A DNA stretch of 64,000 nt from Escherichia coli. GTDB taxonomy: Bacteria; Pseudomonadota; Gammaproteobacteria; Enterobacterales; Enterobacteriaceae. Location: NCBI RefSeq assembly GCF_011045215.1, contig NZ_CP049201.1; one strand, 5' to 3'. The notes below the pieces were generated by a model, which made no database searches, was not told the DNA's origin, and saw only the letters and a program-made list of their open reading frames with translations. Below, piece after piece: positions 5,807-60,527 of this stretch. Made by a program: the position numbers and the translations under genes. Within the stretch, counting starts at the first letter, position 1. Each line of letters begins with the position of its first letter.

Positions 5807-8005
5807 TTAAACCACATCCGGCAGCTTATCGAGCAGCTTATCCAGAGTGATGGGATAATCGCGTACCCGAATACCGGTGGCGTTATACACCGCGTTGGCG
5901 ATAGCCGCGCTCACGCCGCACAGGCCCAGCTCACCGACACCTTTGGCCTTCATCGGGGAGGATATGGGGTCGGTATCATCCAGGAAAATCACTTCCTGTT
6001 TTGGGATATCCGCATGGACCGGCACCTCATACCCCGCCATATCGTGATTAACGAAGTAACCCAAACGGTCATCCACCGCCAGCTCCTCCATCAGTGCCGC
6101 GCCCATGCCCATAGTCATTGCGCCAATGACCTGGCTGCGTGCAGTTTTCGGATTCAGGATGCGTCCTGCAGCACACACAGCGAGCATACGCCGGACCCGA
6201 ACTTCTCCCGTCGCTCTATGCACGCCGACCTCCACAAAATGCCCGGCAAAGGTCGACTGCTGGTACTCCTTGCTCAGTGTTCCGAATTCAATGCTCTCTT
6301 CCGCTGTCAGTCTGCCGCCTGCGGTGGCCTCATGTAGCATGGCGCTTCGGGTACCGTTGGTAATCTTGCCGTCGGCAAACTGCGACTGCTCAGGATCAAA
6401 CCCGACTGCCGAGGCAATCATTTCGCGAAGCTTCACACAGGCGGCGTAAACGCCGGAGGTGGAGGTATTCGCGCCCCATTGTCCACCAGAACCCGCAGAA
6501 ACCGGGAAACTGGAATCGCCGAGGTGAACCGCAACCTGCTCCAGCGGTACGCCAAGCATTTCCGCTGCCGTCTGGGCCAGAATGGTGTAGCTGCCGGTGC
6601 CAATGTCGGTCATGTCCGTTTCCACGGTAACGGTGCCGTTTGGTTCGAGGTGAACCCGAGCCCCCGATTTTTCCAGCAGATTATTGCGAAAGCCCGCCGC
6701 GACGCCGTGGCCGACTAGCCACTCTCCGTCGCGTACCTGTCCGGGTGTGGCGTTGCGCTGCTTCCAGCCAAATTTATCCGCTCCGGTGCGCAAGCACTCG
6801 ATAAGCTGACGGCGAGAGAAGCGGCGCGTCGGGTCGGCGGGGTCAACCTGAGTGTCATTCAGGATGCGAAACTCGACGGGATCGATGCCCGCTTTTTCCG
6901 CCAGTTCGTCGATCGCGATTTCGAGCGCCATCAGACCGGGGGCTTCGCCGGGCGCACGCATGGCGTTCCCTTCTGGCAAATCAAGCGTGGCGAGCCGCAG
7001 GCCGGTATGACGGTTTGCCCCGGCGTAGAGTAATTCGCTTTGCTGTACCGCCGTTTCCGGCGTGCCGCCGGGCAGGTTTCCGGACCAGCTTTCATGTGAG
7101 ATAGCGGTGATTTTCCCGCTCTGGTCGGCACCGATACGCAAGTGCTGAAGGGTGGCGGGGCGGTGCGTGGTGTTATTGGGAATAGAGGGGCGGGGGAGCA
7201 TCACTTTAACCGGACGTTTCACCGCTCGGGCGGCGAGGGCCGCCAGCAGCGCATCGCTTCTCAGGAACAGCTTGCCGCCAAACCCTCCGCCGATATACGG
7301 GGAGATAATACGCACATTCTCCACGGGCACTTTTAGCGTTTTTGCCAGATCGGTGCGGCACCAGTCAATCATCTGATTTGAGGTCCAGAGAGTAAGCTTA
7401 TTTCCATCCCAGACGGCCATCGAGGCATGCGGCTCCATCGCCATATGGCTCTGGTCCGGGGTCGTGTAGGTAGCATCAATCTTCACCGCAGCGGAGGTGA
7501 AAGCCCCGTCAAAGTCACCGACGTTTTTGTCGGGCGTGTCTTCCGGCGGCTGACTGACGGCCTGTTTTTCGTCCGCCAGGGAGTAAGCTCCTTTATTACG
7601 GCGATAGTGCGCCTGCACCAGCGAGGCCGCCGCTCGCGCCTGTTCGAAGGTCTCGGCCACTACCAGCGCAATGGCCTGATGATAGTGCTCAATAGTGGGA
7701 CCGCCTAACAGCCTGGCGGTGTTTTTGTCGCCTTTGCCGAGTGCCCCGGCGTTACTGGCGGTAATGACAGCCAGTACGCCCGGCGCTTTTTGCGCGGCGT
7801 CCGTATCAAGGGCGGTGAGGCGTCCTTTGGCAATGGCGGAACCGACGATATAGCCATAGGCGGCGTTGGGGGATTCTTCATGCCATTCGTAGGCGTAGCG
7901 TGCCGTGCCGGTAGTTTTCAGCGGTCCGTCGATGCGGTCATAGGGACGACCGACAACCTTCAGCTGATCGATCGGGTTTTCCCCTGCGGGTTTATCAAAT
8001 TTCAT
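5807..8005 (-). CDS. paoC: periplasmic aldehyde oxidoreductase, molybdopterin-binding large subunit
   Basis: 732 aa xanthine-dehydrogenase-family molybdopterin subunit; 4-nt overlap with paoB. Confidence 0.9.
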
Positions 8006-8958
8006 GCTTGTGCCCTCGCTTCAGCCAGTACGGAGGCAAGCGTTCGCTTCGCCAACAGGAGTTTAAAGGTGTTTTCAGCGGTGGGATGGGCGCTGGCGAA
8101 CAGCGCGTCATATACGGCCTGCGCCCCCTGGGATAGCTGAGCATCCGCAGCCTCAATGCGCCAGGGCTTATGTGCTACTCCGCCCAGCGCGACGCGCCCG
8201 CTGCCGTCAGGCTGAATAATCGCCGCGACCGATACCAGGGCAAAGGCGTAGGAGGCGCGATCGCGCACCTTACGGTAGATATGTTTTCCGCCGAGCGGCG
8301 GAGGTAACGTCACCGCAATGATAAGCTCACCGGGAAGCAGGGCGGTTTCAATGTGCGGCGTTTTCCCCGGTGGGTGATAAAAATCAGCCAGTGTGATACT
8401 GCGAGTCTTTCCCTCCGGCGTGATGGTTTCCACCACCGCATCCAGCAACCGCATTGCGACCGCCATATCGCTCGGATGGGTGGCAATGCAGGCTTCGCTT
8501 ACGCCTACCACCGCGTGCTGACGGCTAAAGCCTTCAAGCGCCGCGCAGCCGCTCCCGGGCAGGCGCTTATTGCAGGGCTGATTGGTGTCGTAAAAATAGG
8601 GGCAGCGCGTGCGCTGGAGCAGATTACCTGCGGTGGTTGCCTGATTGCGTAACTGACCAGACGCGCCAGCGAGCAGGGCGCGGGAGAGTACCGCGTAATC
8701 ACGACGCACGCGCTCGTGAGCCGCCAGGTCGGTGTTCCGTACCAGTGCGCCGATGCGCAGCCCACCCGCGTCGGTCACTTCGATCTTATCGAGCCCGAGG
8801 CCGTTCACATCGATAAGGTGGGTGGGCGTTTCAATTTCCAGCTTCATCAGGTCCAGCAGATTGGTCCCGCCCGCGATAAATTTTGCGCCGGGTACGCGCT
8901 GAGCGCTAAGTGCCGCCTCGGCTGGGGTGTTCACTCGTTCATAGGTAAACGCCTTCAT
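8002..8958 (-). CDS. paoB: periplasmic aldehyde oxidoreductase, FAD-binding subunit
   Basis: 318 aa CO-dehydrogenase flavoprotein-like; overlaps paoA stop and paoC start by 4 nt, suggesting translational coupling. Confidence 0.9.
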
Positions 8959-9644
8959 GATTTTATCTCCCCCGCAGCGTCTTCAATGGCGGCAAGGATG
9001 TTAGCGTATGCACCACAGCGACAGATGTTGCCGCTCATACGTTCACGGATCTCATCGGCAGTTGTTTCTGGAGGGGAAACCAAATCGACCGTGACGTGAC
9101 TGGGAATGCCGTCCTGAATCTCTTTTAGCACCGCTACTGATGAGCAAATTTGCCCGGAAGTGCAGTAGCCGCACTGGAAGCCATCATGCTTGATAAAGGC
9201 CGCCTGCATGGGGTGAAGATTATCTGGTGAACCCAGGCCTTCAATGGTGGTGATCTCGGCCCCCTGATGCATGACTGCCAGCGTCAGGCAGGCATTAAGC
9301 CTGCGACCATTGACCAGCACGGTACAGGCTCCGCACTGTCCGTGATCGCAACCTTTCTTGGTACCGATCAGATGCAGATTTTCACGCAAAGCGTCCAGTA
9401 GCGTGGTTCGGGTATCCACCTCAAGCTGCTCGGTTTTGCCGTTCACCTTAAGTGTCAGGGGCATTATCTCTGGCGCGGGTGTAGCTGCCGGAACGCTTGC
9501 CGCAAGCGTAGAATGAGGATAAACCACGGCGGTCGCCGCCGTTGCGGCGCTCACTTTAATCAGATCGCGACGGGTCAAACTAAAATCGTGCGGCTCGTGC
9601 TTCCCAACCCGATTATCTTCGGGGTATTCGCCTTGGTTGCTCAT
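8955..9644 (-). CDS. paoA: periplasmic aldehyde oxidoreductase, 2Fe-2S subunit with Tat signal
   Basis: 229 aa; twin-arginine motif [19 protein letters not shown]; two 2Fe-2S cysteine clusters (CDHGQCGAC and CGYCTSGQ...CRCG). Confidence 0.9.
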
Positions 9645-10060
9645 ACCAGGCCTCCGGTATTCTAAAGGGGAAAATAAGAGTGCGTTGTGAGAGTGCTGAT
9701 GCTTTTTTAAACGTTAAGCATAGTCGGCGACAGCAGGAGGATTATTCTTAAAACGCGAATGCAGCTATGAGCCCGGCTAATAAATTCATGTTCGCCGGGA
9801 TGTTGATGAGGATGGGAGCTGGTTTATTGCTTTAGTTGTACGATGCAAAACCGATAAGGAAACCTGTGATTGTCAGCTCTGCATCACCCTGCAAATCTTT
9901 GTCACTTCTAATATAAAAATATGGAGAAATGATGGTGCTTATATTCATTGGCGATTAGGCAACCATCATTTTATACAAAACAATACAGTTCTTTACATTT
10001 GCCTTGTTTTATGAATACTCCTAAAGAGGTGTATAACATAATGGTACAAGCAGGGTAGAT

Positions 10061-10675
10061 ATGAATATATTTGAACAAACTCCTCCGAACCGCAGACGTT
10101 ATGGTCTTGCTGCATTCATTGGGCTGATTGCTGGCGTTGTTTCCGCATTTGTGAAGTGGGGGGCTGAAGTTCCATTGCCGCCACGTAGCCCGGTGGATAT
10201 GTTTAATGCAGCGTGTGGCCCGGAATCATTAATCAGGGCTGCTGGGCAAATTGATTGCTCGCGTAATTTTCTCAATCCTCCGTATATTTTTCTTCGAGAC
10301 TGGCTGGGGCTGACAGATCCCAATGCGGCTGTTTATACCTTTGCCGGGCATGTCTTTAACTGGGTTGGTGTTACGCACATTATCTTTTCGATAGTGTTTG
10401 CTGTCGGTTATTGTGTGGTCGCTGAAGTATTTCCAAAAATTAAACTCTGGCAGGGCTTACTGGCAGGTGCTTTAGCCCAACTTTTTGTTCATATGATTTC
10501 ATTCCCTCTCATGGGACTGACACCACCTCTGTTTGATCTCCCGTGGTATGAGAATGTTTCTGAAATTTTTGGACATTTAGTCTGGTTCTGGTCCATTGAA
10601 ATTATTCGCAGAGATTTACGAAACAGAATTACTCATGAGCCAGACCCTGAGATCCCTTTAGGCTCAAACAGATAA
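10061..10675 (+). CDS. yagU: inner membrane protein YagU (DUF1440)
   Basis: 204 aa multi-pass membrane protein, matches YagU by position and sequence. Confidence 0.85.
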
Positions 10676-10689
10676 TGCATTGAATGATA

Positions 10690-10718
10690 AAAATGGCGCA
10701 AATACAGCGCCATTTTTA
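10690..10718 (+). terminator. intrinsic terminator after yagU
   Basis: Stem AAAATGGCGC / GCGCCATTTT with loop AAATACA, followed by a T-run, 15 nt after the yagU stop. Confidence 0.55.
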
Positions 10719-10865
10719 TAGGTTAAAAACATTGCTTTTTATATTCTGATGCAGATAGCCAGTGAGTATATCGTGCCACTTCAGGATGATGTAGATCCGA
10801 AGAACGCTACAGAAGAGAGGCATTGTTGCTGGCAAATACAAGAAGTATCGGGTTTTGTTGCCCCT

Positions 10866-10899
10866 AAAAACGAAGCCCCGCTATTACAGTAGGCGGGGC
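10866..10899 (-). terminator. intrinsic terminator after ykgJ
   Basis: Hairpin GCCCCGC(11-nt loop)GCGGGGC at 10875-10899, followed on the minus strand by UUCGUUUUU; about 19 nt downstream of the ykgJ stop. Confidence 0.5.
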
Positions 10900-10917
10900 A
10901 GTGCAATTAATTTATGT

Positions 10918-11247
10918 TTATAACGGTGTCAGCCCGTATTTAGCCCTTGCACGATTGCAAGCCTCATTGACGACTCCGTTCTCACCAGACATGGCGAATT
11001 CTCTGCATGTGGACGATCGATTTTTATATATCGTGCAGCAGGCATTTTTGCCCGGGGTTCCTGCAAGGGCAATACATCGGGGGTTTTTCTGATTGGTACC
11101 GCTCATGCATCGGTGAAAAGGGGATATTTGTTCAGTGAGCCTGGCGGGAATAGTGCCGCCAGCATCGTCGGCTTCGGCCCAGTAGAAAGAGACGCGGAAA
11201 AATGCACAACAGGCACCACACGTCATGCATGGATTCAGATTGCTCAT
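10918..11247 (-). CDS. ykgJ: cysteine-rich YkgJ-family (UPF0153) putative Fe-S/zinc protein
   Basis: 109 aa with CMTCGACC...C motifs. Confidence 0.8.
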
Positions 11248-11559
11248 AATTCACCAGTACAGCTATAAATCGTAAAGAGAACAGCGGTACATCGTATGTA
11301 AGAACGTACCGCGGTTGGCTGGTGTACTTTCGATAGTGTGAGTATTGAATGATTTCCAGCCGTTACCGATTTTACGTACTAATTCGTGAATAAACCACTC
11401 GTTAGCAGGCAGCCTGATACCTTTCCGTGTCTCCTGAACACTATGGTGTGCATATGGGAAAGCCCATCGTTACAGGTGATATTGACGATCGCTTCCACAT
11501 CATTTAAACGATTTTTGAGTCTCTGAGGTGGAATTCTTCCCTCGACCGATGGATAAGTA

Positions 11560-51024: not shown

Positions 51025-51522
51025 TTAATACCCGTCGCGTTTAGTCGTCGCTTCGCTTAATTTTTGTCCACCATATTCTGAAATTATCCCCACGCAGTTA
51101 CCCGCCAGAAAACCCAGTAACGTCACCGTCCAGTTCATCCCGCTGGCAAAAAACAGCGTCATGCCGAGAAAGCCACCGGGAATAAATGACAGTAACCAGA
51201 AACGCCCTTGCCAGACCACCACCGCCGAGAAGGGGGCGGTAGTAATTACGCTCGCCCAGAACCCAGAAATCCCACTCACCGAGGCCAGCCAACCGGCAGC
51301 CAGCGCGGCGAAAAACGCCCACACCATCCCGGAATAATTAACCGCCAGACTTCTGATAAACCCCGATTTACCGCCGCCTGCGGCATAAAAACTGCAAAAG
51401 GCGACGAAGCCAATGGTTCCTAATAATTCCCATCCCTGAGAGAGCCCGACATGTGAAGACACTAACTGCCAAAGCCCTGCACAAATACCGACGGTGACAC
51501 CCGTTGCCGTGAGTCCGTTCAT
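51025..51522 (-). CDS. yahC: inner membrane protein YahC
   Basis: 165 aa, highly hydrophobic multi-pass protein. Confidence 0.7.
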   Translation of the reverse strand: MNGLTATGVTVGICAGLWQLVSSHVGLSQGWELLGTIGFVAFCSFYAAGGGKSGFIRSLAVNYSGMVWAFFAALAAGWLASVSGISGFWASVITTAPFSAVVVWQGRFWLLSFIPGGFLGMTLFFASGMNWTVTLLGFLAGNCVGIISEYGGQKLSEATTKRDGY

Positions 51523-51779
51523 CTTGTTCCCCTCTGGTTAGACATGGACGAAAGCTACTCTTACATGTGCAGACTATAGAGAAATAAAACCTGATTGAGT
51601 GAAAGGGTATCGGGTCAAAGAAACAAATATTGCACTACCGCACACTGCGAAAAGATTGTTGAACATCATTCAACAAAAAGGCGAAATACGGCGAATTAAA
51701 TTTAAGCGGGTTCTTTTATCAGATTATCGTTGCTATTCTCAATTCATCGAAAACAGCCACAAAAACCAGGGGAATGTGA

Positions 51780-52385
51780 ATGAGTATAAAAAATCTACCT
51801 GCCGACTATTTATTGGCTGCACAACAGGGTGATATCGATAAAGTAAAAACCTGCCTTGCGCTGGGTGTCGATATTAATACCTGCGATCGTCAGGGGAAAA
51901 CGGCAATTACGCTGGCAAGTTTATATCAGCAATATGCTTGCGTTCAGGCATTAATTGATGCCGGAGCGGATATTAATAAACAAGATCATACCTGTTTAAA
52001 TCCTTTTTTAATTAGCTGTCTGAACGATGATTTAACGCTACTACGAATTATTTTACCGGCTAAACCCGATCTTAATTGCGTAACCCGTTTTGGCGGTGTC
52101 GGCCTGACGCCTGCCTGTGAAAAAGGCCATTTAAGTATTGTAAAAGAGCTTTTGGCGCATACGGAAATTAACGTTAACCAGACCAACCATGTAGGCTGGA
52201 CGCCGCTACTGGAAGCGATTGTGCTTAATGATGGTGGTATTAAACAACAGGCGATTGTGCAGTTATTGCTGGAACACGGTGCCAGCCCGCATCTGACCGA
52301 TAAATATGGCAAAACGCCACTGGAACTGGCGCGGGAACGGGGCTTTGACGAGATTGCGCAGTTACTGATTGCCGCAGGCGCATAA
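51780..52385 (+). CDS. yahD: ankyrin-repeat protein
   Basis: 201 aa with several ankyrin repeats (…GKTAITLASLYQQYACVQALIDAGADIN…, …GWTPLLEAIVLN…, …GKTPLELARERG…). Confidence 0.8.
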   Translation: MSIKNLPADYLLAAQQGDIDKVKTCLALGVDINTCDRQGKTAITLASLYQQYACVQALIDAGADINKQDHTCLNPFLISCLNDDLTLLRIILPAKPDLNCVTRFGGVGLTPACEKGHLSIVKELLAHTEINVNQTNHVGWTPLLEAIVLNDGGIKQQAIVQLLLEHGASPHLTDKYGKTPLELARERGFDEIAQLLIAAGA

Positions 52386-52424
52386 ACCGGGAGGCTTGCA
52401 ATCAACACACCAGAAAAACGGTGT

Positions 52425-53288
52425 ATGTGGGCGCTAACTGCGGATGCGGATTTTCTGGCGCAGCGGGGGCAAGGACAGGTTGAACAGGTCTTTGCCAGAG
52501 CGGTAAATATCGCACTCCCGGCTCGCCAGCAGTTGCTGACGCTGCTTTGTGAAGAGTACGACAATGCGCCAAACAGTTGTCGGTTGGCACTCACTCACTT
52601 TGATGATCTGTTCCGGCATGGTGATAAGGTTCAGTTTGACGATCAAGGTATTACGGTTGGTCAACATCTTCATATAGAGATGAGTCGTTGTCGGCGTTGG
52701 CTGTCCCCAACCTTGCAAATGACCGCTGTGAATTTTCACCTTATCGCCTGGCAACAGTGGCACGACATTATTCATCAGCACCTGGGGGAAAATGAAACCC
52801 TGTTTAATTATCGCGGCGATAATCCGTTTTATCAGGCGTTAAATAAAGAATTACATATTAAACGACGGGCAGTTATTCAGACAGTAAACGATAAGCAAAA
52901 TATCGCCTCAGCGGTCGCCAGTATGATGGGGTTAGGGATTGGCCTTACGCCATCAGCCGACGATTATTTAACAGGTCTGGCGCTTATTTTATTTATTCCC
53001 GGGCATCCGGCGGAAAAATACAAAGAGGAATTTTATCTCGGTCTGCAACGCGGCAGAAATAATACCACATTATTAAGTGCTATAACGCTGGAAGCCGCAT
53101 TACAACAACGTTGCCGGGAAAATATTCATCGTTTTATTCACAACATTATTTATGACATCCCTGGGAACGCAACTCAGGCAATAGAAAAAATTAAACATAT
53201 TGGCTCCAGTTCCGGCTGCGACATGCTGTATGGCATGGCCGATGGTTGTGCGCTGAGCCAAACCTACGGAGGGAATTATGTCAGTTAA
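52425..53288 (+). CDS. yahE: DUF2877-family protein (YlbF/AllH-like)
   Basis: 287 aa; 11-nt overlap with yahF. Confidence 0.7.
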   Translation: MWALTADADFLAQRGQGQVEQVFARAVNIALPARQQLLTLLCEEYDNAPNSCRLALTHFDDLFRHGDKVQFDDQGITVGQHLHIEMSRCRRWLSPTLQMTAVNFHLIAWQQWHDIIHQHLGENETLFNYRGDNPFYQALNKELHIKRRAVIQTVNDKQNIASAVASMMGLGIGLTPSADDYLTGLALILFIPGHPAEKYKEEFYLGLQRGRNNTTLLSAITLEAALQQRCRENIHRFIHNIIYDIPGNATQAIEKIKHIGSSSGCDMLYGMADGCALSQTYGGNYVS

Positions 53289-54825
53289 AATAGTCATTAA
53301 ACCGAATACCTATTTTGATTCTGTCTCGCTGATGTCTATCTCCACGCGTGCAAATAAACTCGACGGCGTCGAGCAGGCATTTGTGGCGATGGCGACCGAA
53401 ATGAATAAAGGCGTGCTGAAGAATTTAGGACTGCTGACGCCGGAGCTGGAACAGGCGAAAAACGGCGACCTGATGATTGTCATCAATGGTAAATCGGGTG
53501 CGGACAACGAGCAGTTGCTGGTGGAGATTGAAGAACTGTTCAACACCAAAGCGCAAAGCGGCTCGCACGAGGCGCGTTACGCCACTATTGCCAGCGCCAA
53601 AAAGCATATCCCGGAAAGTAACCTGGCGGTGATTTCGGTCAACGGTCTGTTTGCCGCTCGCGAAGCGCGTCAGGCGCTGCAAAACGATCTCAACGTGATG
53701 CTGTTTTCCGATAACGTCTCGGTTGAAGATGAACTGGCGCTCAAACAGTTGGCCCATGAAAAAGGGCTGCTGATGATGGGGCCGGACTGCGGCACGGCGA
53801 TTATCAACGGCGCGGCGCTCTGCTTTGGTAACGCCGTGCGTCGCGGTAACATCGGTATTGTTGGCGCATCCGGCACCGGCAGCCAGGAGCTGAGCGTCCG
53901 CATTCATGAATTTGGCGGAGGCGTTTCGCAACTCATCGGCACCGGCGGGCGCGACCTGAGCGAGAAAATCGGCGGCCTGATGATGCTCGACGCCATCGGG
54001 ATGCTGGAAAACGATCCGCAAACTGAAATTATCGCGCTGATTTCAAAACCTCCCGCGCCTGCGGTGGCCCGTAAAGTGCTGGAACGCGCCCGCGCCTGCC
54101 GCAAGCCGGTGGTGGTCTGCTTCCTCGGTCGTGGCGAAACGCCAGTGGACGAGCAGGGGCTACAGTTTGCTCGCGGCAGCAAAGAAGCGGCGCTGAAAGC
54201 GGTGATGCTCTCCGGCGTGAAACAGGAACATCTCGATCTGCATACCCTGAACCAGCCGTTGATTGCGGATGTGCGTGCGCGTCTGCAACCCCAGCAGAAA
54301 TACATTCGTGGCCTGTTCTGCGGCGGTACGCTGTGTGACGAAACCATGTTCGCGGTGATGGAAAAACACGGCGATGTCTACAGCAACATCCAGCCCGATC
54401 CTGAATTCCGCCTGCAAGATATCAACCGCAGCATCAAACACACCTTCCTCGACTTTGGCGATGACGACTTCACCAACGGCAAGCCGCACCCGATGATTGA
54501 CCCCACCAACCGTATCAGCCGCTTGATCGAAGAAGCGCGCGATCCAGAAGTGGCGGTGATCGTGATGGATTTTGTGCTCGGATTTGGATCGCACGAAGAT
54601 CCGGTTGGTTCCACCATCGAGGCGATCAAAGAAGCGAAAGCGATCGCCGCTGCCGAAGGACGCGAGTTGATCATTCTCGCCTATGTGCTGGGTACCGATC
54701 TTGATACGCCATCGTTAGAACAACAAAGCCAGATGCTGCTTGATGCCGGAGTGATTCTGGCGAGCAGCAGCACCAATACCGGATTGCTGGCGCGTGAATT
54801 TATCTGCAAAGGGGAGGAAGCCTGA
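53278..54825 (+). CDS. yahF: FdrA-like CoA-ligase-fold protein (AllF paralog)
   Basis: 515 aa, succinyl-CoA-synthetase-alpha-like fold (…IGIVGASGTGSQEL…). Confidence 0.8.
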   Translation: MSVKIVIKPNTYFDSVSLMSISTRANKLDGVEQAFVAMATEMNKGVLKNLGLLTPELEQAKNGDLMIVINGKSGADNEQLLVEIEELFNTKAQSGSHEARYATIASAKKHIPESNLAVISVNGLFAAREARQALQNDLNVMLFSDNVSVEDELALKQLAHEKGLLMMGPDCGTAIINGAALCFGNAVRRGNIGIVGASGTGSQELSVRIHEFGGGVSQLIGTGGRDLSEKIGGLMMLDAIGMLENDPQTEIIALISKPPAPAVARKVLERARACRKPVVVCFLGRGETPVDEQGLQFARGSKEAALKAVMLSGVKQEHLDLHTLNQPLIADVRARLQPQQKYIRGLFCGGTLCDETMFAVMEKHGDVYSNIQPDPEFRLQDINRSIKHTFLDFGDDDFTNGKPHPMIDPTNRISRLIEEARDPEVAVIVMDFVLGFGSHEDPVGSTIEAIKEAKAIAAAEGRELIILAYVLGTDLDTPSLEQQSQMLLDAGVILASSSTNTGLLAREFICKGEEA

Positions 54826-56243
54826 TGAGCCAGTCACTGTTTAGCCAACCATTGAACGTTATTAACGTCGGCATCGCCATGTTTAGCGATGACCTGAAAA
54901 AGCAGCATGTAGAAGTGACTCAACTCGACTGGACGCCGCCGGGGCAGGGCAATATGCAGGTGGTGCAGGCGCTGGATAACATTGCCGATTCGCCGCTGGC
55001 AGACAAAATCGCCGCCGCTAACCAGCAGGCGCTGGAGCGCATTATCCAGTCGCATCCGGTGCTGATTGGTTTTGATCAGGCGATTAACGTGGTGCCGGGC
55101 ATGACGGCGAAAACCATTCTTCACGCCGGGCCGCCGATCACCTGGGAAAAAATGTGCGGCGCGATGAAAGGCGCGGTCACCGGAGCGCTGGTGTTCGAAG
55201 GGCTGGCGAAAGATCTCGATGAGGCGGCTGACCTGGCGGCTTCCGGGGAGATCACCTTCTCGCCGTGTCACGAGCACGACTGCGTGGGATCGATGGCGGG
55301 TGTGACCTCGGCCTCGATGTTTATGCACATCGTAAAAAACAAAACCTACGGCAACATCGCTTATACCAACATGAGCGAGCAGATGGCGAAGATTTTGCGT
55401 ATGGGCGCTAACGACCAGAGCGTGATTGACCGCCTGAACTGGATGCGTGATGTGCAGGGACCAATACTGCGCGACGCGATGAAAATTATCGGCGAAATCG
55501 ATCTGCGCTTAATGCTGGCGCAGGCGCTGCATATGGGCGATGAGTGCCATAACCGCAATAACGCCGGGACGACGCTGCTGATTCAGGCGCTGACGCCGGG
55601 GATTATCCAGGCGGGCTATTCCGTGGAGCAACAGCGCGAAGTGTTTGAGTTTGTCGCCAGCAGCGACTACTTCTCCGGCCCGACGTGGATGGCGATGTGT
55701 AAAGCGGCGATGGATGCGGCGCACGGCATCGAATACAGCACCGTCGTTACCACCATGGCGCGTAACGGCGTCGAATTCGGCCTGCGAGTCAGCGGATTAC
55801 CGGGGCAATGGTTTACCGGCCCGGCGCAGCAGGTTATTGGCCCGATGTTTGCCGGTTATAAGCCGGAAGATTCAGGGCTGGATATTGGCGACAGCGCCAT
55901 CACTGAAACCTACGGTATTGGCGGGTTTGCCATGGCGACCGCGCCTGCAATCGTCGCGCTGGTCGGCGGTACGGTGGAAGAGGCTATCGATTTCTCCCGT
56001 CAGATGCGCGAAATCACTCTCGGTGAAAACCCCAACGTCACCATTCCGCTGCTCGGTTTTATGGGCGTGCCGTCGGCAATCGACATCACCCGCGTGGGTA
56101 GCAGCGGCATTCTGCCGGTGATCAACACCGCCATCGCCCATAAAGATGCGGGCGTCGGCATGATTGGCGCGGGCATTGTGCATCCACCTTTTGCCTGCTT
56201 CGAGAAAGCCATTCTTGGCTGGTGCGAACGTTACGGCGTCTGA
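54825..56243 (+). CDS. yahG: DUF1116-family protein (YlbE/AllG-like)
   Basis: 472 aa; start overlaps the yahF stop (TGATG). Confidence 0.8.
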   Translation: MSQSLFSQPLNVINVGIAMFSDDLKKQHVEVTQLDWTPPGQGNMQVVQALDNIADSPLADKIAAANQQALERIIQSHPVLIGFDQAINVVPGMTAKTILHAGPPITWEKMCGAMKGAVTGALVFEGLAKDLDEAADLAASGEITFSPCHEHDCVGSMAGVTSASMFMHIVKNKTYGNIAYTNMSEQMAKILRMGANDQSVIDRLNWMRDVQGPILRDAMKIIGEIDLRLMLAQALHMGDECHNRNNAGTTLLIQALTPGIIQAGYSVEQQREVFEFVASSDYFSGPTWMAMCKAAMDAAHGIEYSTVVTTMARNGVEFGLRVSGLPGQWFTGPAQQVIGPMFAGYKPEDSGLDIGDSAITETYGIGGFAMATAPAIVALVGGTVEEAIDFSRQMREITLGENPNVTIPLLGFMGVPSAIDITRVGSSGILPVINTAIAHKDAGVGMIGAGIVHPPFACFEKAILGWCERYGV

Positions 56244-56255
56244 CCTACATGTTCA

Positions 56256-56709
56256 TGCCGGATGCGGCGTGAACGCCTTATCCGGCCTACAAGTGGCGCA
56301 AGAATTTGTAGGCCTGATAAGCGTAGCGCATCAGGCATTTGTCACCATTGCCTGATGCGGCGTGAACGCCTTATCCGGCCTACGAGTGGCGCGAGAATTT
56401 GTAGGCCTGATAAGCGTAGCGCATCAGGCATTTGTCACCATTGCCGGATGCGGCGTGAACGCCTTATCCGGCCTACGAGTGGCACGAGAATTTGTAGGCC
56501 TGATAAGCGTAGCGCATCAGGCATTTGTCACCATTGCCGGATGCGGCGTGAACGCCTTATCCGGCCTACGAGTGGCACGAGAATTTGTAGGCCTGATAAG
56601 CGTAGCGCATCAGGCATTTGTCACCATTGCCGGATGCGGCGTGAACGCCTTATCCGGCCTACGAGTGGCACGAGAATTTGTAGGCCTGATAAGCGTAGCG
56701 CATCAGGCA
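56256..56709. repeat. tandem REP (BIME-type) array, about 5 units of about 93 bp
   Basis: Repeating unit TGCCGGATGCGGCGTGAACGCCTTATCCGGCCTAC-spacer-TAGGCCTGATAAGCGTAGCGCATCAGGCA-TTTGTCACCAT, with unit starts at about 56256, 56349, 56442, 56536 and 56628; fills the yahG-yahI gap. Confidence 0.85.
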
Positions 56710-56758
56710 ATTTGGCGTTGGTCACAACCCCATCATCCTCTGTAGCGGACATAACAAA

Positions 56759-57709
56759 ATGAAAGAGCTTGTGGTCGTTGCCATTGGTGGCAACAGCATT
56801 ATCAAAGATAACGCCAGCCAGTCGATTGAGCATCAGGCGGAGGCGGTGAAAGCCGTCGCCGATACGGTGCTGGAAATGCTGGCTTCCGATTACGACATTG
56901 TGCTGACCCACGGTAACGGGCCGCAGGTCGGGCTGGATTTACGCCGTGCGGAGATTGCCCACGAGCGCGAAGGGCTGCCCTTAACGCCGCTGGCGAACTG
57001 TGTGGCAGATACGCAGGGCGGCATCGGCTATCTGATCCAACAGGCGCTGAATAACCGGCTGGCGCGTCACGGCGAGAAGAAAGCCGTCACCGTGGTGACT
57101 CAGGTGGAAGTGGATAAAAACGATCCAGGTTTTGCCCATCCCACCAAGCCCATTGGTGCATTCTTCAGTGAAAGCCAGCGTGACGAATTACAAAAGGCAA
57201 ACCCTGACTGGCGTTTTGTTGAAGATGCCGGACGGGGCTATCGCCGCGTGGTCGCCTCGCCGGAACCGAAACGTATTGTCGAAGCACCCGCCATTAAGGC
57301 GCTGATCCAACAAGGCTTTGTGGTGATTGGCGCGGGCGGCGGCGGAATTCCTGTGGTGCGTACTGACGCGGGAGATTACCAAAGCGTGGACGCGGTTATC
57401 GACAAAGATCTCTCTACCGCGCTACTGGCTCGCGAAATTCACGCCGACATTCTGGTGATCACCACTGGCGTGGAAAAAGTGTGTATTCATTTTGGTAAAC
57501 CGCAGCAACAGGCGCTCGATCGGGTGGATATTGCCACCATGACCCGCTATATGCAGGAAGGGCATTTCCCGCCCGGCAGCATGTTGCCAAAAATCATCGC
57601 CAGCCTGACGTTCCTGGAACAGGGCGGCAAAGAAGTGATTATCACCACGCCGGAATGCCTGCCTGCGGCGCTGCGCGGTGAAACGGGCACCCATATTATT
57701 AAAACGTAA
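56759..57709 (+). CDS. yahI: carbamate kinase-like protein
   Basis: 316 aa amino-acid-kinase fold (MKELVVVAIGGNSI…THGNGPQVG…). Confidence 0.85.
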   Translation: MKELVVVAIGGNSIIKDNASQSIEHQAEAVKAVADTVLEMLASDYDIVLTHGNGPQVGLDLRRAEIAHEREGLPLTPLANCVADTQGGIGYLIQQALNNRLARHGEKKAVTVVTQVEVDKNDPGFAHPTKPIGAFFSESQRDELQKANPDWRFVEDAGRGYRRVVASPEPKRIVEAPAIKALIQQGFVVIGAGGGGIPVVRTDAGDYQSVDAVIDKDLSTALLAREIHADILVITTGVEKVCIHFGKPQQQALDRVDIATMTRYMQEGHFPPGSMLPKIIASLTFLEQGGKEVIITTPECLPAALRGETGTHIIKT

Positions 57710-57718
57710 GGACGTAAG

Positions 57719-59101
57719 ATGAAAGAAAGCAATAGCCGCCGTGAATTTCTGAGCCAGAGCGGTAAGATGGTCACCGCCGCCGCGCTGTTTGGTACCTCTG
57801 TGCCGCTCGCCCATGCGGCGGTAGCTGGCACCCTAAACTGCGAAGCGAACAACACCATGAAAATCACTGACCCGCATTACTATCTCGACAACGTGCTGCT
57901 GGAAACTGGATTTGACTACGAAAATGGCGTGGCGGTGCAGACCCGCACGGCGCGCCAGACCGTGGAGATTCAGGACGGCAAAATTGTCGCGCTGCGCGAG
58001 AACAAGCAGCATCCGGACGCCACGCTGCCGCACTATGACGCTGGCGATAAGCTGATGCTGCCCACCACCCGCGACATGCATATTCATCTCGACAAAACCT
58101 TCTACGGCGGGCCGTGGCGCTCGCTCAATCGTCCGGCAGGCACCACTATCCAGGACATGATCAAACTCGAGCAGAAAATGCTGCCGGAGTTACAACCGTA
58201 TACGCAGGAGCGGGCGGAAAAACTGATCGATCTATTGCAGTCGAAAGGCACCACCATTGCCCGCAGCCACTGCAATATCGAACCGGTTTCCGGTCTGAAA
58301 AATCTGCAAAATTTGCAGGCGGTGCTGGCGCGACGTCAGGCGGGCTTCGAGTGTGAAATCGTCGCCTTCCCGCAGCACGGTTTGCTGCTGTCGAAATCGG
58401 AACCCTTAATGCGCGAAGCGATGCAGGCGGGTGCGCATTACGTCGGCGGGCTGGACCCGACCAGTGTCGATGGCGCGATGGAAAAATCCCTCGACACCAT
58501 GTTCCAGATTGCGCTGGACTACGACAAAGGCGTCGATATTCACCTGCACGAAACCACTCCGTCGGGCGTGGCAGCCATCAATTATATGGTTGAAACGGTA
58601 GAGAAAACGCCTCAACTGAAAGGTAAGCTGACCATCAGCCACGCCTTTGCGCTGGCTACGCTCAACGAGCAACAGGTAGATGAACTGGCGCATCGCATGG
58701 CGGCGCAGCAAATTTCTATCGCCTCGACGGTGCCGATTGGCACGCTGCATATGCCGCTCAAACAGTTGCACGACAAAGGCGTAAAAGTGATGACTGGCAC
58801 TGACAGCGTTATCGACCACTGGTCGCCTTATGGTCTGGGCGACATGCTGGAAAAAGCCAATCTCTACGCGCAGCTCTATATTCGTCCTAACGAACAGAAC
58901 CTCTCCCGTTCGCTGTTTTTAGCCACTGGCGATGTATTGCCGCTGAATGAAAAAGGCGAGCGTGTATGGCCAAAAGCGCAGGATGACGCCAGCTTTGTGC
59001 TGGTGGACGCCTCCTGTTCCGCCGAGGCGGTGGCGCGTATCTCGCCGAGAACCGCAACGTTCCATAAAGGGCAACTGGTGTGGGGGAGTGTGGCAGGTTG
59101 A
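57719..59101 (+). CDS. yahJ: Tat-exported amidohydrolase-superfamily deaminase-like protein
   Basis: 460 aa; twin-arginine motif SRREFLSQSGKMVTAAALFGTSVPLAHA; metal-dependent hydrolase motifs (HIHLDK…, HLHE…). Confidence 0.8.
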   Translation: MKESNSRREFLSQSGKMVTAAALFGTSVPLAHAAVAGTLNCEANNTMKITDPHYYLDNVLLETGFDYENGVAVQTRTARQTVEIQDGKIVALRENKQHPDATLPHYDAGDKLMLPTTRDMHIHLDKTFYGGPWRSLNRPAGTTIQDMIKLEQKMLPELQPYTQERAEKLIDLLQSKGTTIARSHCNIEPVSGLKNLQNLQAVLARRQAGFECEIVAFPQHGLLLSKSEPLMREAMQAGAHYVGGLDPTSVDGAMEKSLDTMFQIALDYDKGVDIHLHETTPSGVAAINYMVETVEKTPQLKGKLTISHAFALATLNEQQVDELAHRMAAQQISIASTVPIGTLHMPLKQLHDKGVKVMTGTDSVIDHWSPYGLGDMLEKANLYAQLYIRPNEQNLSRSLFLATGDVLPLNEKGERVWPKAQDDASFVLVDASCSAEAVARISPRTATFHKGQLVWGSVAG

Positions 59102-59477
59102 TGCGCATTTGAAACGCCTGCAACGGTGAATAGTAAGAGATTTAAGCCCCAGGGAGTGGGGCAATCTGAATATGAGTGTGTCGGCAGAAATGGACATTAT
59201 CTTTTAGGAATATGCCCTTATTGACGTTGTGTAGATAACTATTTGTCTACGTGAAAAGATCATCAGTTTTGCCGATTTTAGTCTTTTACGGATAGCAAAT
59301 ATCACACTTACAGGCGCTCGCCTTATGGGGAACGTTGCTGCTCTGTTTCATTCAGGCTCGCGGCATGTTGGGGCTGGATCGGGTGGTTTAAATATTGGCT
59401 ATATTCAATGGACGCGTTTTGCCGCGATGACATATCAGGCGTCGCCAAATACACATAGCTAATCAGGAGTAAACACA

Positions 59478-60527
59478 ATGAAGATCAAAGCTGTTGGTGC
59501 ATATTCCGCTAAACAACCACTTGAACCGATGGATATCACCCGGCGTGAACCGGGACCGAATGATGTCAAAATCGAAATCGCTTACTGTGGCGTCTGCCAT
59601 TCCGATCTCCACCAGGTCCGTTCCGAGTGGGCGGGGACGGTTTATCCCTGCGTGCCGGGTCATGAAATTGTGGGGCGTGTGGTAGCCGTTGGTGATCAGG
59701 TAAAAAAATATGCGCCGGGCGATCTGGTCGGTGTCGGCTGCATTGTCGACAGTTGTAAACATTGCGAAGAGTGTGAAGACGGGCTGGAAAACTACTGTGA
59801 TCACATGACCGGCACCTATAACTCGCCGACGCCGGACGAACCGGGCCATACTCTGGGCGGCTACTCACAACAGATCGTCGTTCATGAGCGATATGTTCTG
59901 CGTATTCGTCACCCGCAAGAGCAGCTGGCGGCGGTGGCTCCTTTGTTGTGTGCAGGGATCACCACGTATTCGCCGCTACGTCACTGGCAGGCCGGACCGG
60001 GTAAAAAAGTGGGCGTGGTCGGCATCGGCGGTCTGGGACATATGGGGATCAAGCTGGCCCACGCGATGGGGGCGCATGTGGTGGCATTTACCACTTCTGA
60101 GTCAAAACGCGAAGCGGCAAAAGCCCTGGGGGCCGATGAAGTTGTTAACTCACGCAATGCCGATGAGATGGCGGCTCATGTGAAGAGTTTCGATTTCATT
60201 TTGAATACAGTAGCTGCGCCACATAATCTCGACGATTTTACCACCTTGCTGAAGCGTGATGGCACCATGACGCTGGTTGGTGCGCCTGCGACACCGCATA
60301 AATCGCCGGAAGTTTTCAACCTGATCATGAAACGCCGTGCGATAGCCGGTTCTATGATTGGCGGCATTCCAGAAACTCAGGAGATGCTCGATTTTTGCGC
60401 CGAACATGGCATCGTGGCTGATATAGAGATGATTCGGGCCGATCAAATTAATGAAGCCTATGAGCGAATGCTGCGTGGTGATGTGAAATATCGTTTTGTT
60501 ATCGATAATCGCACACTAACAGACTGA
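59478..60527 (+). CDS. yahK: NADPH-dependent zinc alcohol dehydrogenase-type aldehyde reductase
   Basis: 349 aa; catalytic and structural zinc ligands (GVCHSDLH, CKHCEECEDGLENYC); nucleotide-binding motif GVVGIGGLGHMG. Confidence 0.85.
   Translation: MKIKAVGAYSAKQPLEPMDITRREPGPNDVKIEIAYCGVCHSDLHQVRSEWAGTVYPCVPGHEIVGRVVAVGDQVKKYAPGDLVGVGCIVDSCKHCEECEDGLENYCDHMTGTYNSPTPDEPGHTLGGYSQQIVVHERYVLRIRHPQEQLAAVAPLLCAGITTYSPLRHWQAGPGKKVGVVGIGGLGHMGIKLAHAMGAHVVAFTTSESKREAAKALGADEVVNSRNADEMAAHVKSFDFILNTVAAPHNLDDFTTLLKRDGTMTLVGAPATPHKSPEVFNLIMKRRAIAGSMIGGIPETQEMLDFCAEHGIVADIEMIRADQINEAYERMLRGDVKYRFVIDNRTLTD

Follow-up and report, generated by a model that had tools for sequence, protein, structure and literature searches.

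Why should a single product of the yah operon of Escherichia coli carry an export signal, and does it place one step of a putative pathway in the periplasm? We approached this question in a 64,000-nucleotide stretch of an E. coli genome (contig NZ_CP049201.1), referred to below as the window. The E. coli y-ome contains several dense blocks made up of uncharacterised genes, and yahDEFGIJ is one of them (PMC11551758). In a mouse ExPEC model, a yahJ deletion has been reported to impair competition slightly but significantly (competitive index 0.70; PMC7549933). The genes upstream of yahJ, and the other Tat-signal protein of the window, are located as follows:

8955..9644, minus strand: paoA (yagT), the other Tat-signal protein in the window, with the motif TRRDLIK (open reading frame scan)
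51780..52385, plus strand: yahD, ankyrin-repeat protein, first gene of the operon (Pfam Ank families); no signal peptide in Enterobacterales
52425..56243, plus strand: yahE, yahF (fdrA) and yahG (Pfam AllH; CoA_binding and Ligase_CoA; AllG); no signal peptides
56256..56714, no strand assigned: REP array, formerly 'yahH', 4.9 copies of a 93-bp unit (Tandem Repeats Finder)
56759..57709, plus strand: yahI, carbamate kinase family, directly upstream of yahJ (Pfam AA_kinase; RefSeq); no signal peptide

The former yahH has been described as filled with REP23 sites (PMC11551758), and a promoter and terminator scan of positions 51400-59500 returned nothing above shuffle expectation and nothing on the plus strand. 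YahE, YahF and YahG are paralogous to AllH, AllF and AllG, the subunits of oxamate carbamoyltransferase, and by their Pfam assignments YahE, YahF, YahG and YahI reproduce the co-location of AllH, AllF (CoA-binding/ligase-like), AllG and carbamate kinase families, with the corresponding activity predicted. The function of AllFGH as an oxamate carbamoyltransferase is described in PMC11326118, where the yah paralogues are not mentioned, and a search of the literature on YahD and ankyrin found nothing on function. The original prediction held that YahJ alone among the yah products has a signal peptide, and this was borne out for YahD, E, F, G and I, whose N-termini showed no RR and no positive n-region followed by a hydrophobic core. 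Its statement that PaoA carries a Tat motif was equally correct: PaoA, which has a PaoA equivalog match, contains TRRDLIK and passed both Tat-signal profile cut-offs (Pfam TAT_signal, 22.9 against 22.7; TIGR01409, 20.1 against 16.7).

The yahJ gene occupies positions 57719-59101 of the window on the plus strand, and its translation is a 460-aa protein beginning MKESNSRREFLSQSGKMVTAAALFGTSVPLAHA. Its parts, all on the plus strand, are:

57708..57712, plus strand: Shine-Dalgarno sequence AAGGA, 6 nt before the ATG at 57719 (read from the sequence)
57719..57817, plus strand: signal peptide MKESNSRREFLSQSGKMVTAAALFGTSVPLAHA, 33 codons (translation; the same peptide is the TatP-predicted Tat signal in PMC7549933)
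57734..57751, plus strand: twin-arginine motif S-R-R-E-F-L (S6-R7-R8-E9-F10-L11), with the RR codons CGC CGT at 57737-57742
57767..57808, plus strand: hydrophobic core of the signal peptide, M17-L30, uncharged and moderately hydrophobic
57809..57817, plus strand: A-H-A (residues 31-33), predicted signal peptidase I site, with cleavage predicted after residue 33
57818..57874, plus strand: linker of variable sequence, residues 34-52, joining the cleavage site to the folded domain; probably flexible
57875..59101 including the stop codon, plus strand: catalytic amidohydrolase domain, CodA/AtzC-like (Pfam Amidohydro_3, Amidohydro_1)

Judged by its residues, the peptide is a twin-arginine-type signal. 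An S/T-R-R-x-F-L-K-type motif, with the K displaced to position 16, stands at the boundary of the n-region and h-region within about the first 35 residues, and is followed by an uncharged, moderately hydrophobic h-region and an A-x-A signal peptidase I site. Translation, the run of 25 uncharged residues after K16 (highest 10-residue Kyte-Doolittle mean 1.63) and the A-H-A site confirmed the three elements initially claimed, namely an S-R-R-x-F-L Tat motif, a hydrophobic core and an AxA-like site; the c-region has no basic 'Sec-avoidance' residue. The signal had been placed at 57719-57829, of which the start was right and the end lay four codons beyond A-H-A; the peptide listed in PMC7549933 stops at the same residue as the A-H-A site. 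Codons for SRREFL occurred once in the window and matched in 0 of 100 shuffles, which, together with the conservation of RR, ruled out a chance occurrence. Linker residues 34-52 were poorly conserved in an alignment of 16 sequences (A1), and in an AF2 model residues 1-46 are outside the fold, with pLDDT below 50 and the first strand beginning at about residue 53. Signal-less YahJ homologues start at the equivalent of residue ~55, which is the start of the folded domain.

The signal was conserved well beyond E. coli. All 77 proteobacterial genome loci kept RR, as did 117 of 120 close YahJ homologues, the exceptions being one RH variant and two truncated records. Orthologues also retained the A-x-A site (A-H-A, A-Y-A, A-W-A or A-L-A) while the residues between it and RR drifted. 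The FLSQSGK segment after RR was unusually well conserved. RR or RK signals were also present in homologues at greater distance (35-62% identity) that belong to other lineages. In Priestia (Bacillaceae), an RR-bearing homologue has a xanthine/uracil permease on one side and, on the other, its own tatA and tatC, which follow on the same strand with gaps of 30 and 67 nt. The Priestia homologue has no linkage to the yah module.

YahJ is, on sequence comparison, most likely a mononuclear-metal aminohydrolase of the cytosine deaminase/AtzC branch. NCBIfam NF005312 (PRK06846) matched residues 49-459 of 460 with 717 bits against a cut-off of 447, Pfam Amidohydro_3 scored 64.1 against 29.7, and among PDB matches 6nbo was found at E 1.8e-43 and CodA at ~1e-17. 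Residues H121, H123, Q219, H275, H308 and D362 were invariant in alignment A1, one member (P0145) has T in place of E278, and each of the seven corresponds in alignment to a catalytic residue of CodA (HxH, Q, HxxE, H, D). It had been proposed that the substrate is either deaminated or ring-opened; because the catalytic residues match those of CodA, with AtzC and cytosine deaminase as the nearest structures, deamination is the more likely of the two.

The gene order yahD-E-F-G-(permease)-I-J was conserved in about 30 loci, nearly all from Enterobacterales, and was also found in a distant contig (L089) whose YahJ, at an identity of only 35%, retains an RR signal. The AllHFG-like and carbamate kinase gene set and order occurred in the same contig and in two others (L092 and L093), and a YahD-like gene was present in 38 genome loci and in four distant ones (these three and L088). 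The permease slot corresponds to a 516-aa membrane protein gene located between yahG and yahI in 28 genome loci, nearly all Enterobacterales. Source annotations call this protein a xanthine/AzgA-like permease, an identity that rests on names only; searches of Pfam, NCBIfam and PDB gave no match for it, and BLASTP showed no significant similarity to the Xan_ur_permease of Priestia. The operon in the window has no permease, and the REP array fills the slot between yahG and yahI that a permease-like gene takes up in most Enterobacterales. Nucleobase-type transporters and PucR regulators were recurrent neighbours, and in Acinetobacter a Bmp/ABC nucleoside-type importer precedes a signal-less YahJ homologue. 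In Brevibacillus the same module contains a signal-less deaminase of a different (small CDA) fold beside the carbamate kinase gene, and in Bosea a signal-less YahJ paralogue lies directly beside it. These comparative data narrow the search for the YahJ substrate to amino-substituted nucleobase-like heterocycles.

We therefore propose, with moderate confidence in the model as a whole, that YahJ is a Tat-exported deaminase acting in the periplasm, the product of which is imported and used by YahEFG and YahI. The YahJ precursor, bearing a twin-arginine signal peptide of 33 residues that can be cleaved off, would fold in the cytoplasm, where it probably also acquires its metal. TatABC would then recognise S-R-R-E-F-L and export the folded protein, and signal peptidase I would cut after A-H-A; what remains would be a soluble enzyme in the periplasm with a flexible N-terminal linker of ~20 residues. 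There it may remove an amino group from a nucleobase-like N-heterocycle. The deamination product would be imported, and either it or a downstream ureido compound would be processed in the cytoplasm by YahEFG, an AllHFG-like carbamoyltransferase, and the carbamate kinase YahI, possibly generating carbamoyl phosphate and from it ATP, NH3 and CO2. That a periplasmic first step precedes import, as the original prediction had it, is plausible but supported in part only: the permease gene in 28 loci, the tatA-tatC pair of Priestia and the importer of Acinetobacter speak for it, whereas the missing permease in the window, the 24 YahJ-like loci with LysR described below, the sub-threshold Tat-profile scores and the recognition of the signal by Sec as well as Tat speak against it. 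So do the signal-less deaminases of Brevibacillus and Bosea, which indicate that an outside location is not intrinsic to the pathway.

Another possibility, which we consider unlikely, is that YahJ is a stand-alone periplasmic deaminase that scavenges nitrogen or detoxifies base analogues outside the cell, with no YahEFGI step and with adjacency reflecting operon packaging only. In 24 genome loci, including Serratia, Pantoea, Rahnella, Rhizobiales and Paracoccus, a YahJ-like gene was accompanied by an adjacent LysR gene with no other yah genes nearby, and four loci had only yahB-yahD-yahJ; the link of YahJ to YahEFGI is thus not obligatory. The importer is missing from the E. coli operon, and no ring-opening enzyme was visible that would connect a deaminated heterocycle with a ureido substrate for YahEFG, leaving two chemistries without a link. 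Against this stand the conserved D-E-F-G-(permease)-I-J order, which extends from Enterobacterales to the contig with a 35%-identical YahJ, and the Brevibacillus module, where the presence of another deaminase beside the carbamate kinase gene is a reason to count a deaminase among the steps of the pathway. The AAGGA of yahJ moreover overlaps the stop codon of yahI (57707-57709), which suggests that the two genes are translationally coupled.

Somewhat less likely still is that YahJ leaves the cytoplasm mainly or partly by Sec, with the RR motif tolerated or serving as a back-up route only. The c-region without a basic residue would suit Sec, and the Tat profiles gave no positive call: Pfam PF10518 (TAT_signal) did not match the peptide at E values up to 10, and TIGR01409 reached 14.6 bits, below its cut-off of 16.7 (E 0.033). 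Both are short models of limited sensitivity, and the sub-threshold scores are a real negative without being a disproof of a Tat signal. TatP, on the other hand, calls the 33-aa peptide of identical sequence a Tat signal (PMC7549933), so that the Tat prediction was upheld by TatP and by neither profile. YahJ also appears on lists of predicted Tat substrates from TatP and genome surveys (PMC7549933; PMC3027627). According to published work, the peptide drives export of reporter fusions: as the secretion tag ssYahJ it brings fused passengers into the periplasm of E. coli and Vibrio natriegens, and both Tat and Sec are said to recognise it (PMC6788121, citing Tullman-Ercek 2007 and Fisher 2008). 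A literature search, with Tullman-Ercek 2007 outside its reach, found no report of native YahJ localisation. Fusions with unfolded passengers, however, do not reveal the path of a folded metalloenzyme. RR is essentially invariant across orders and classes where neighbouring residues change, the core is only moderately hydrophobic, and in Priestia a dedicated tatA-tatC pair follows the homologue immediately, on the same strand. From this we infer Tat rather than Sec for native YahJ. The Tat signal is real and strongly conserved but was already known: lists of E. coli Tat substrates have included YahJ for some twenty years, and in biotechnology its signal peptide serves as a cloning part and secretion tag.

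It is also conceivable, with a rather low probability, that Tat is used because YahJ exits with a partner, the signal-less YahD binding it in the cytoplasm as a signal-peptide chaperone or as a co-exported hitch-hiker. In Enterobacterales, YahD-like ankyrin genes are found together with YahJ-like ones, the four loci without yahEFGI included, and both also occur together in Microvirga, a Bacteroidota-like contig and L089. The ankyrin proteins of Microvirga and the Bacteroidota-like contig have their own signal or lipoprotein signal peptides, implying a function outside the cytoplasm, and the conserved FLSQSGK segment after RR would fit a bound partner. As a weak test, an AF2 model of a YahD-linker-YahJ fusion (24 rows, no PAE and no negative control) gave a pTM of 0.60 and no confident docking; both domains had pLDDT above 90 and the signal region below 50. 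The ankyrin gene of Brevibacillus sits with AllHFG-like genes and no YahJ, so the partner of the ankyrin protein may instead be the carbamoyltransferase.

A true start downstream of RR at M17 or M47, which would leave YahJ cytoplasmic and is hinted at by the in-frame ATGs at residues 17 and 47 and by an NCBIfam family model and signal-less homologues beginning near residues 49-55, was examined and rejected, since a start codon lay 4-8 codons upstream of RR in all 52 orthologous loci inspected (ATG in 49, GTG in 3), usually with a run of purines resembling a Shine-Dalgarno sequence in the same place, many orthologues have I, V or L at residue 17, which therefore cannot be a conserved start, the 5' region is conserved as protein (RR-x-F-L motif, hydrophobic core, A-x-A site) and RefSeq annotates the long form.

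Taking the Tat-exported deaminase together with the loci of other lineages, we tentatively suggest that the yah operon is what E. coli retains of a catabolic module, widespread and uncharacterised, for a nucleobase-like compound. LysR or PucR would control this module, which would unite three enzymes (an AllHFG-like carbamoyltransferase, a carbamate kinase and a deaminase) with an AzgA-like permease and an ankyrin protein. Its deaminase step would have been replaced and relocated several times, and may take the form of Tat-exported YahJ in Proteobacteria, a signal-less YahJ paralogue in Bosea or a small CDA-fold deaminase in Brevibacillus; the ankyrin protein could partner the exported enzyme, and the permease of E. 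coli would have been lost to the REP array. If so, E. coli exports a YahJ whose product may no longer enter via the yah operon. Because its operon lacks the permease, E. coli is a poor model for the pathway. Better starting points would be Citrobacter, Enterobacter or Providencia, or the IncF plasmid copies, which were found in about 140 E. coli genomes.

Known systems resemble the yah module in parts. The AllFGH carbamoyltransferase and the carbamate kinase AllK of anaerobic allantoin degradation (PMC11326118; PMC9843812) belong to the same families as YahE, YahF, YahG and YahI, whereas neither an exported deaminase nor an ankyrin protein is encoded in the all cluster. CodA, the cytosine/isoguanine deaminase of E. 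coli, belongs to the same amidohydrolase branch as YahJ (26% identity, E 2e-22), and the HxH, AFPQ(E/H)G, HxxE, SH and D-x-W-x-P-x-G residues correspond in the alignment; CodA, however, is a cytoplasmic enzyme without a signal peptide that has the importer CodB as its partner, whereas YahJ has a 33-residue signal and a linker. The best matches of solved structure, over the whole catalytic domain, were AtzC-type N-isopropylammelide isopropylaminohydrolases (PDB 6nbo, 2qt3 and 4cqb; E 1.8e-43 to 1e-27), with chains of ~400 residues that, unlike YahJ, have no N-terminal extension; no triazine-pathway genes were found near yahJ. In Bacillus subtilis, phoD-tatAd-tatCd encodes a Tat substrate beside its own translocase. 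The YahJ homologue of Priestia, followed by tatA and tatC, is arranged similarly, a likeness confined to Priestia; yahJ of E. coli is far from tatABC, and the general translocase must serve it. The closest parallels in E. coli are AmiA, AmiC, SufI and MdoD, Tat substrates without redox cofactors that are listed beside YahJ in PMC7549933. YahJ differs from them in having an S-Q-S-G-K spacer instead of a K directly after F-L, in falling below the Tat profile cut-offs and in being reported to work with Sec too (PMC6788121), and its native Tat export is predicted. It shares with them the S/T-R-R-x-F-L-type motif, the moderately hydrophobic core and the A-x-A site and, as a predicted soluble periplasmic protein, would like them need no complex redox cofactor.

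yahJ lies on the E. coli chromosome in a region (positions 57000-59300) that is 100% identical to strain GF3-3, at least 80% of which is present in 5035 of 5426 complete E. coli genomes. In RefSeq, it closes a same-strand run, yahD-yahE-fdrA (yahF)-yahG-hypothetical gene-yahI-yahJ; upstream of this run, yahB (a LysR gene) and yahC are divergently oriented. Translation reproduced exactly the N-terminus on which the original prediction of a twin-arginine export signal was based. The features concerned are:

57719-59101, plus strand: yahJ, annotated by RefSeq as an amidohydrolase family protein, 460 residues on translation
57719-57817, plus strand: 33-residue YahJ signal peptide, MKESNSRREFLSQSGKMVTAAALFGTSVPLAHA, followed by AVAG
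8955-9644, minus strand: paoA (YagT), with a long n-region of 22 residues followed by TRRDLIK

An AAGGA sequence sits 6 nt upstream of the yahJ ATG, sharing bases with the yahI stop codon. In all 52 orthologous loci inspected, a start codon (ATG in 49, GTG in three) lies 4-8 codons upstream of the arginine pair, in most cases with a Shine-Dalgarno-like stretch of purines before it. Because this upstream start is kept throughout, and many orthologues have I, V or L at residue 17, the sole nearby alternative Met in YahJ, a conserved start downstream of the motif was excluded. Several E. coli variant records (P0010-P0036) are 414-434 aa long, a loss of 26-46 residues that leaves the signal peptide intact and must therefore be internal or C-terminal.

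The window contains the SRREFL codons a single time, and none of 100 shuffles reproduced them. Conservation is the stronger argument against chance: the twin arginines were retained in 77/77 proteobacterial loci, comprising close homologues from Enterobacterales, Aeromonas and Shewanella and more distant ones from Rhizobiales, Paracoccus, Halomonas and Wohlfahrtiimonas, and in 117 of 120 close homologues; of the other three, one is an RH variant and two are truncated records. The A-x-A site is likewise kept among orthologues, while the hydrophobic core and post-cleavage linker drift; in YahJ, 25 uncharged, moderately hydrophobic residues in a row follow K16. Judged by sequence conservation, the Tat motif is thus confirmed as not a chance match, together with its core and AxA-like site. 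The accompanying claims also held: YahD, YahE, YahF, YahG and YahI carry neither twin arginines nor a signal-like N-terminus, and the PaoA motif was found. The Xenorhabdus szentirmaii orthologue (P0093) is the sole full-length close orthologue with an altered pair (NRHEFL), and may be either a natural test of twin-arginine dependence or a decaying gene.

Profile searches gave a more qualified picture. The YahJ peptide had no match to Pfam TAT_signal and scored 14.6 bits against TIGR01409, under the 16.7-bit cut-off, whereas PaoA exceeded the cut-off in both; the peptide therefore seems somewhat atypical by profile, although it satisfies the motif rules. An S-Q-S-G-K spacer replaces the K of the consensus S-R-R-x-F-L-K, and the c-region contains no basic residue. 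Export by Sec, or by a dual route, is a rival explanation to be set beside these scores and beside the near-invariant arginine pair; export of YahJ as such is very likely. The signal itself is already known, since YahJ appears in published lists of Tat substrates and its signal peptide (ssYahJ) is in use as a secretion tag, described as accepted by both Sec and Tat, with fusions exported in Vibrio natriegens (PMC6788121). In an ExPEC strain, YahJ was among 25 substrates predicted by TatP, with an identical 33-residue peptide, and its deletion gave a competitive index of 0.70 in mice (p = 0.022) (PMC7549933). A list of Tat substrates that E. coli has and Salmonella lacks also includes it, as b0324 yahJ, 'putative deaminase' (PMC3027627). 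In the literature covered, which did not include the primary 2007 study, we found no report of where native YahJ is located.

Across the wider family, the signal is a lineage-specific add-on. Among representatives at ≤50% identity, twin-arginine signals occurred in five homologues (P0122, P0123, P0126, P0134 and P0145), while P0125 has an RK variant. Most of the remaining full-length representatives begin right at the first beta-strand, equivalent to YahJ residue ~55. NCBIfam NF005312, which YahJ matches at 717 bits (cut-off 447), begins at residue 49, so the signal is not part of the family profile. In the AlphaFold2 model, the catalytic domain (pLDDT above 90) begins near residue 53, and residues 1-46 fall below 50. 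In Priestia (Bacillaceae), a twin-arginine homologue 51% identical to YahJ has its own translocase genes directly behind it on one strand, with gaps of 30 and 67 nt, and a divergent permease gene upstream:

7374-11438 of Priestia locus L002 (GCA_004348885.1), also in L003: xanthine/uracil permease, YahJ homologue, tatA, tatC

A Tat substrate is here encoded with its own translocase, and this order is independent support for twin-arginine family members as Tat cargo; no yahEFGI-like genes were found nearby in either locus. In Acinetobacter, a signal-less homologue is preceded by a Bmp/ABC nucleoside-type importer and a TetR gene, the order expected if the substrate were imported first.

The order yahB (divergent), yahD, yahE, yahF, yahG, X, yahI, yahJ was found in about 30 of 80 loci, nearly all Enterobacterales, X being a 516-residue polytopic membrane protein. 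Present in 28 loci (nearly all Enterobacterales), X had no match in Pfam, NCBIfam or PDB, and is named a xanthine permease or AzgA-like permease by sources. Its sequences from Enterobacterales, Bacillaceae, Brevibacillus and Bosea share 65-75% identity. Its gene regularly occurs with AllHFG-like and carbamate kinase genes, and is missing from the operon in E. coli, E. albertii, Pseudocitrobacter, Kluyvera and C. amalonaticus.

7461-9011 of L011 (Citrobacter werkmanii): X, 516-aa polytopic protein (homologues P0271-P0390)
56256-56714 of the window: REP array between yahG and yahI, a 93-bp unit in 4.9 tandem copies, exactly in the slot of X
3107-11540 of L086 (IncF plasmid of E. coli TUM1886): second yah-like cluster, IS-flanked

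The array corresponds to the former, withdrawn gene 'yahH' (PMC11551758, PMC4765031). GF3-3 in RefSeq still has a 119-aa hypothetical protein annotated over it, and, judged from coordinate offsets, the window is one 93-bp unit longer. The second, X-containing cluster (~86% DNA identity) occurs in 142/5426 E. coli genomes, with 106 of its 152 places being plasmids; in the one plasmid inspected, that of TUM1886, insertion sequences have cut off the side of the cluster where yahJ would lie, with transposase fragments in its place.

A rival explanation holds that YahJ is a stand-alone scavenging or detoxifying deaminase outside the YahEFGI pathway. A YahJ-like gene adjoins a LysR gene with other yah genes absent nearby in 24 loci (including Serratia, Pantoea, Rahnella, Rhizobiales and Paracoccus), and yahB-yahD-yahJ stand alone in four. 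The module is also found in very distant relatives. A metagenomic contig (L089) combines X-like, ankyrin-TPR, AllH, AllF, AllG, carbamate kinase and twin-arginine YahJ-like (35% identical) genes with an adjoining PucR regulator. The Brevibacillus module comprises PucR, ankyrin, AllH, AllF, AllG, a cytosine/purine permease, carbamate kinase, X and, in the place of YahJ, an apparently non-orthologous substitute for the deaminase step:

8506-8964 of L092 (Brevibacillus): signal-less CDA-fold zinc deaminase, 152 aa, HAE...PCxxC

In Bosea, the module (PucR, X, a 410-aa protein, AllH, AllF, AllG, carbamate kinase) adjoins a signal-less YahJ paralogue on the opposite strand; the 410-aa protein has no Pfam match and occupies the slot of the ankyrin-TPR gene in L089. 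Taken together, these gene orders show that a deaminase belongs with the module, but that its type and side of the membrane vary. This cross-phylum module around yahJ offers a reasonable starting point for work on the E. coli y-ome.

YahD belongs to an ankyrin subfamily (NRFGG...LGWT.LLEAI.LGDGG) found in five lineages alongside YahJ-like and/or AllHFG-like genes:

51780-52385 of the window: yahD
~11430-12110 of L055 and L056; 6135-6803 of L088, minus strand; 783-2039 of L089; 1403-2011 of L092: yahD-type ankyrin genes

These ankyrins are signal-less in Enterobacterales and Brevibacillus, have a signal peptide in Microvirga and a lipoprotein-type one in a contig that resembles Bacteroidota, and are fused to TPR in L089. 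A further rival, that YahD is a partner in YahJ export, is of low likelihood: four lineages have such an ankyrin together with YahJ-like genes, and the Microvirga and Bacteroidota-like ones carry the signals just named, but Brevibacillus retains the gene without YahJ, and an AlphaFold2 YahD-linker-YahJ fusion (pTM 0.60) gave no sign of docking.

The analysis shows the steps at sequence level; the native export route, substrate, import step and metabolic link are inferred. In the best-supported reading, pre-YahJ would fold in the cytoplasm, be exported by Tat and be cleaved after A-H-A; periplasmic YahJ would deaminate a nucleobase-like compound, whose product would be imported through X in most relatives and by another route in E. 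coli, and a cytoplasmic AllHFG-like complex with carbamate kinase would harvest a carbamoyl group. The proposal that the periplasmic step precedes import is plausible for the ancestral operon, but unsupported in this E. coli, whose operon has no permease.

The substrate had been proposed to be either deaminated or ring-opened. YahJ matches Pfam Amidohydro_3 and Amidohydro_1, and its nearest solved structures are AtzC-type aminohydrolases (6nbo, E 1.8e-43), then cytosine deaminases. In an alignment of 16 family sequences, H121, H123, Q219, H275, H308 and D362 do not vary, and one member has another residue in place of E278. Since its relatives are of AtzC and CodA type and CodA segments and residues are kept, YahJ is more likely to deaminate an amino-substituted heterocycle by hydrolysis than to open its ring. 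At 26% identity (E 2e-22), YahJ and E. coli cytosine deaminase CodA have in common aligned HxH, AFPQ(H/E)G, HxxE, SH and D-x-W-x-P-x-G segments.
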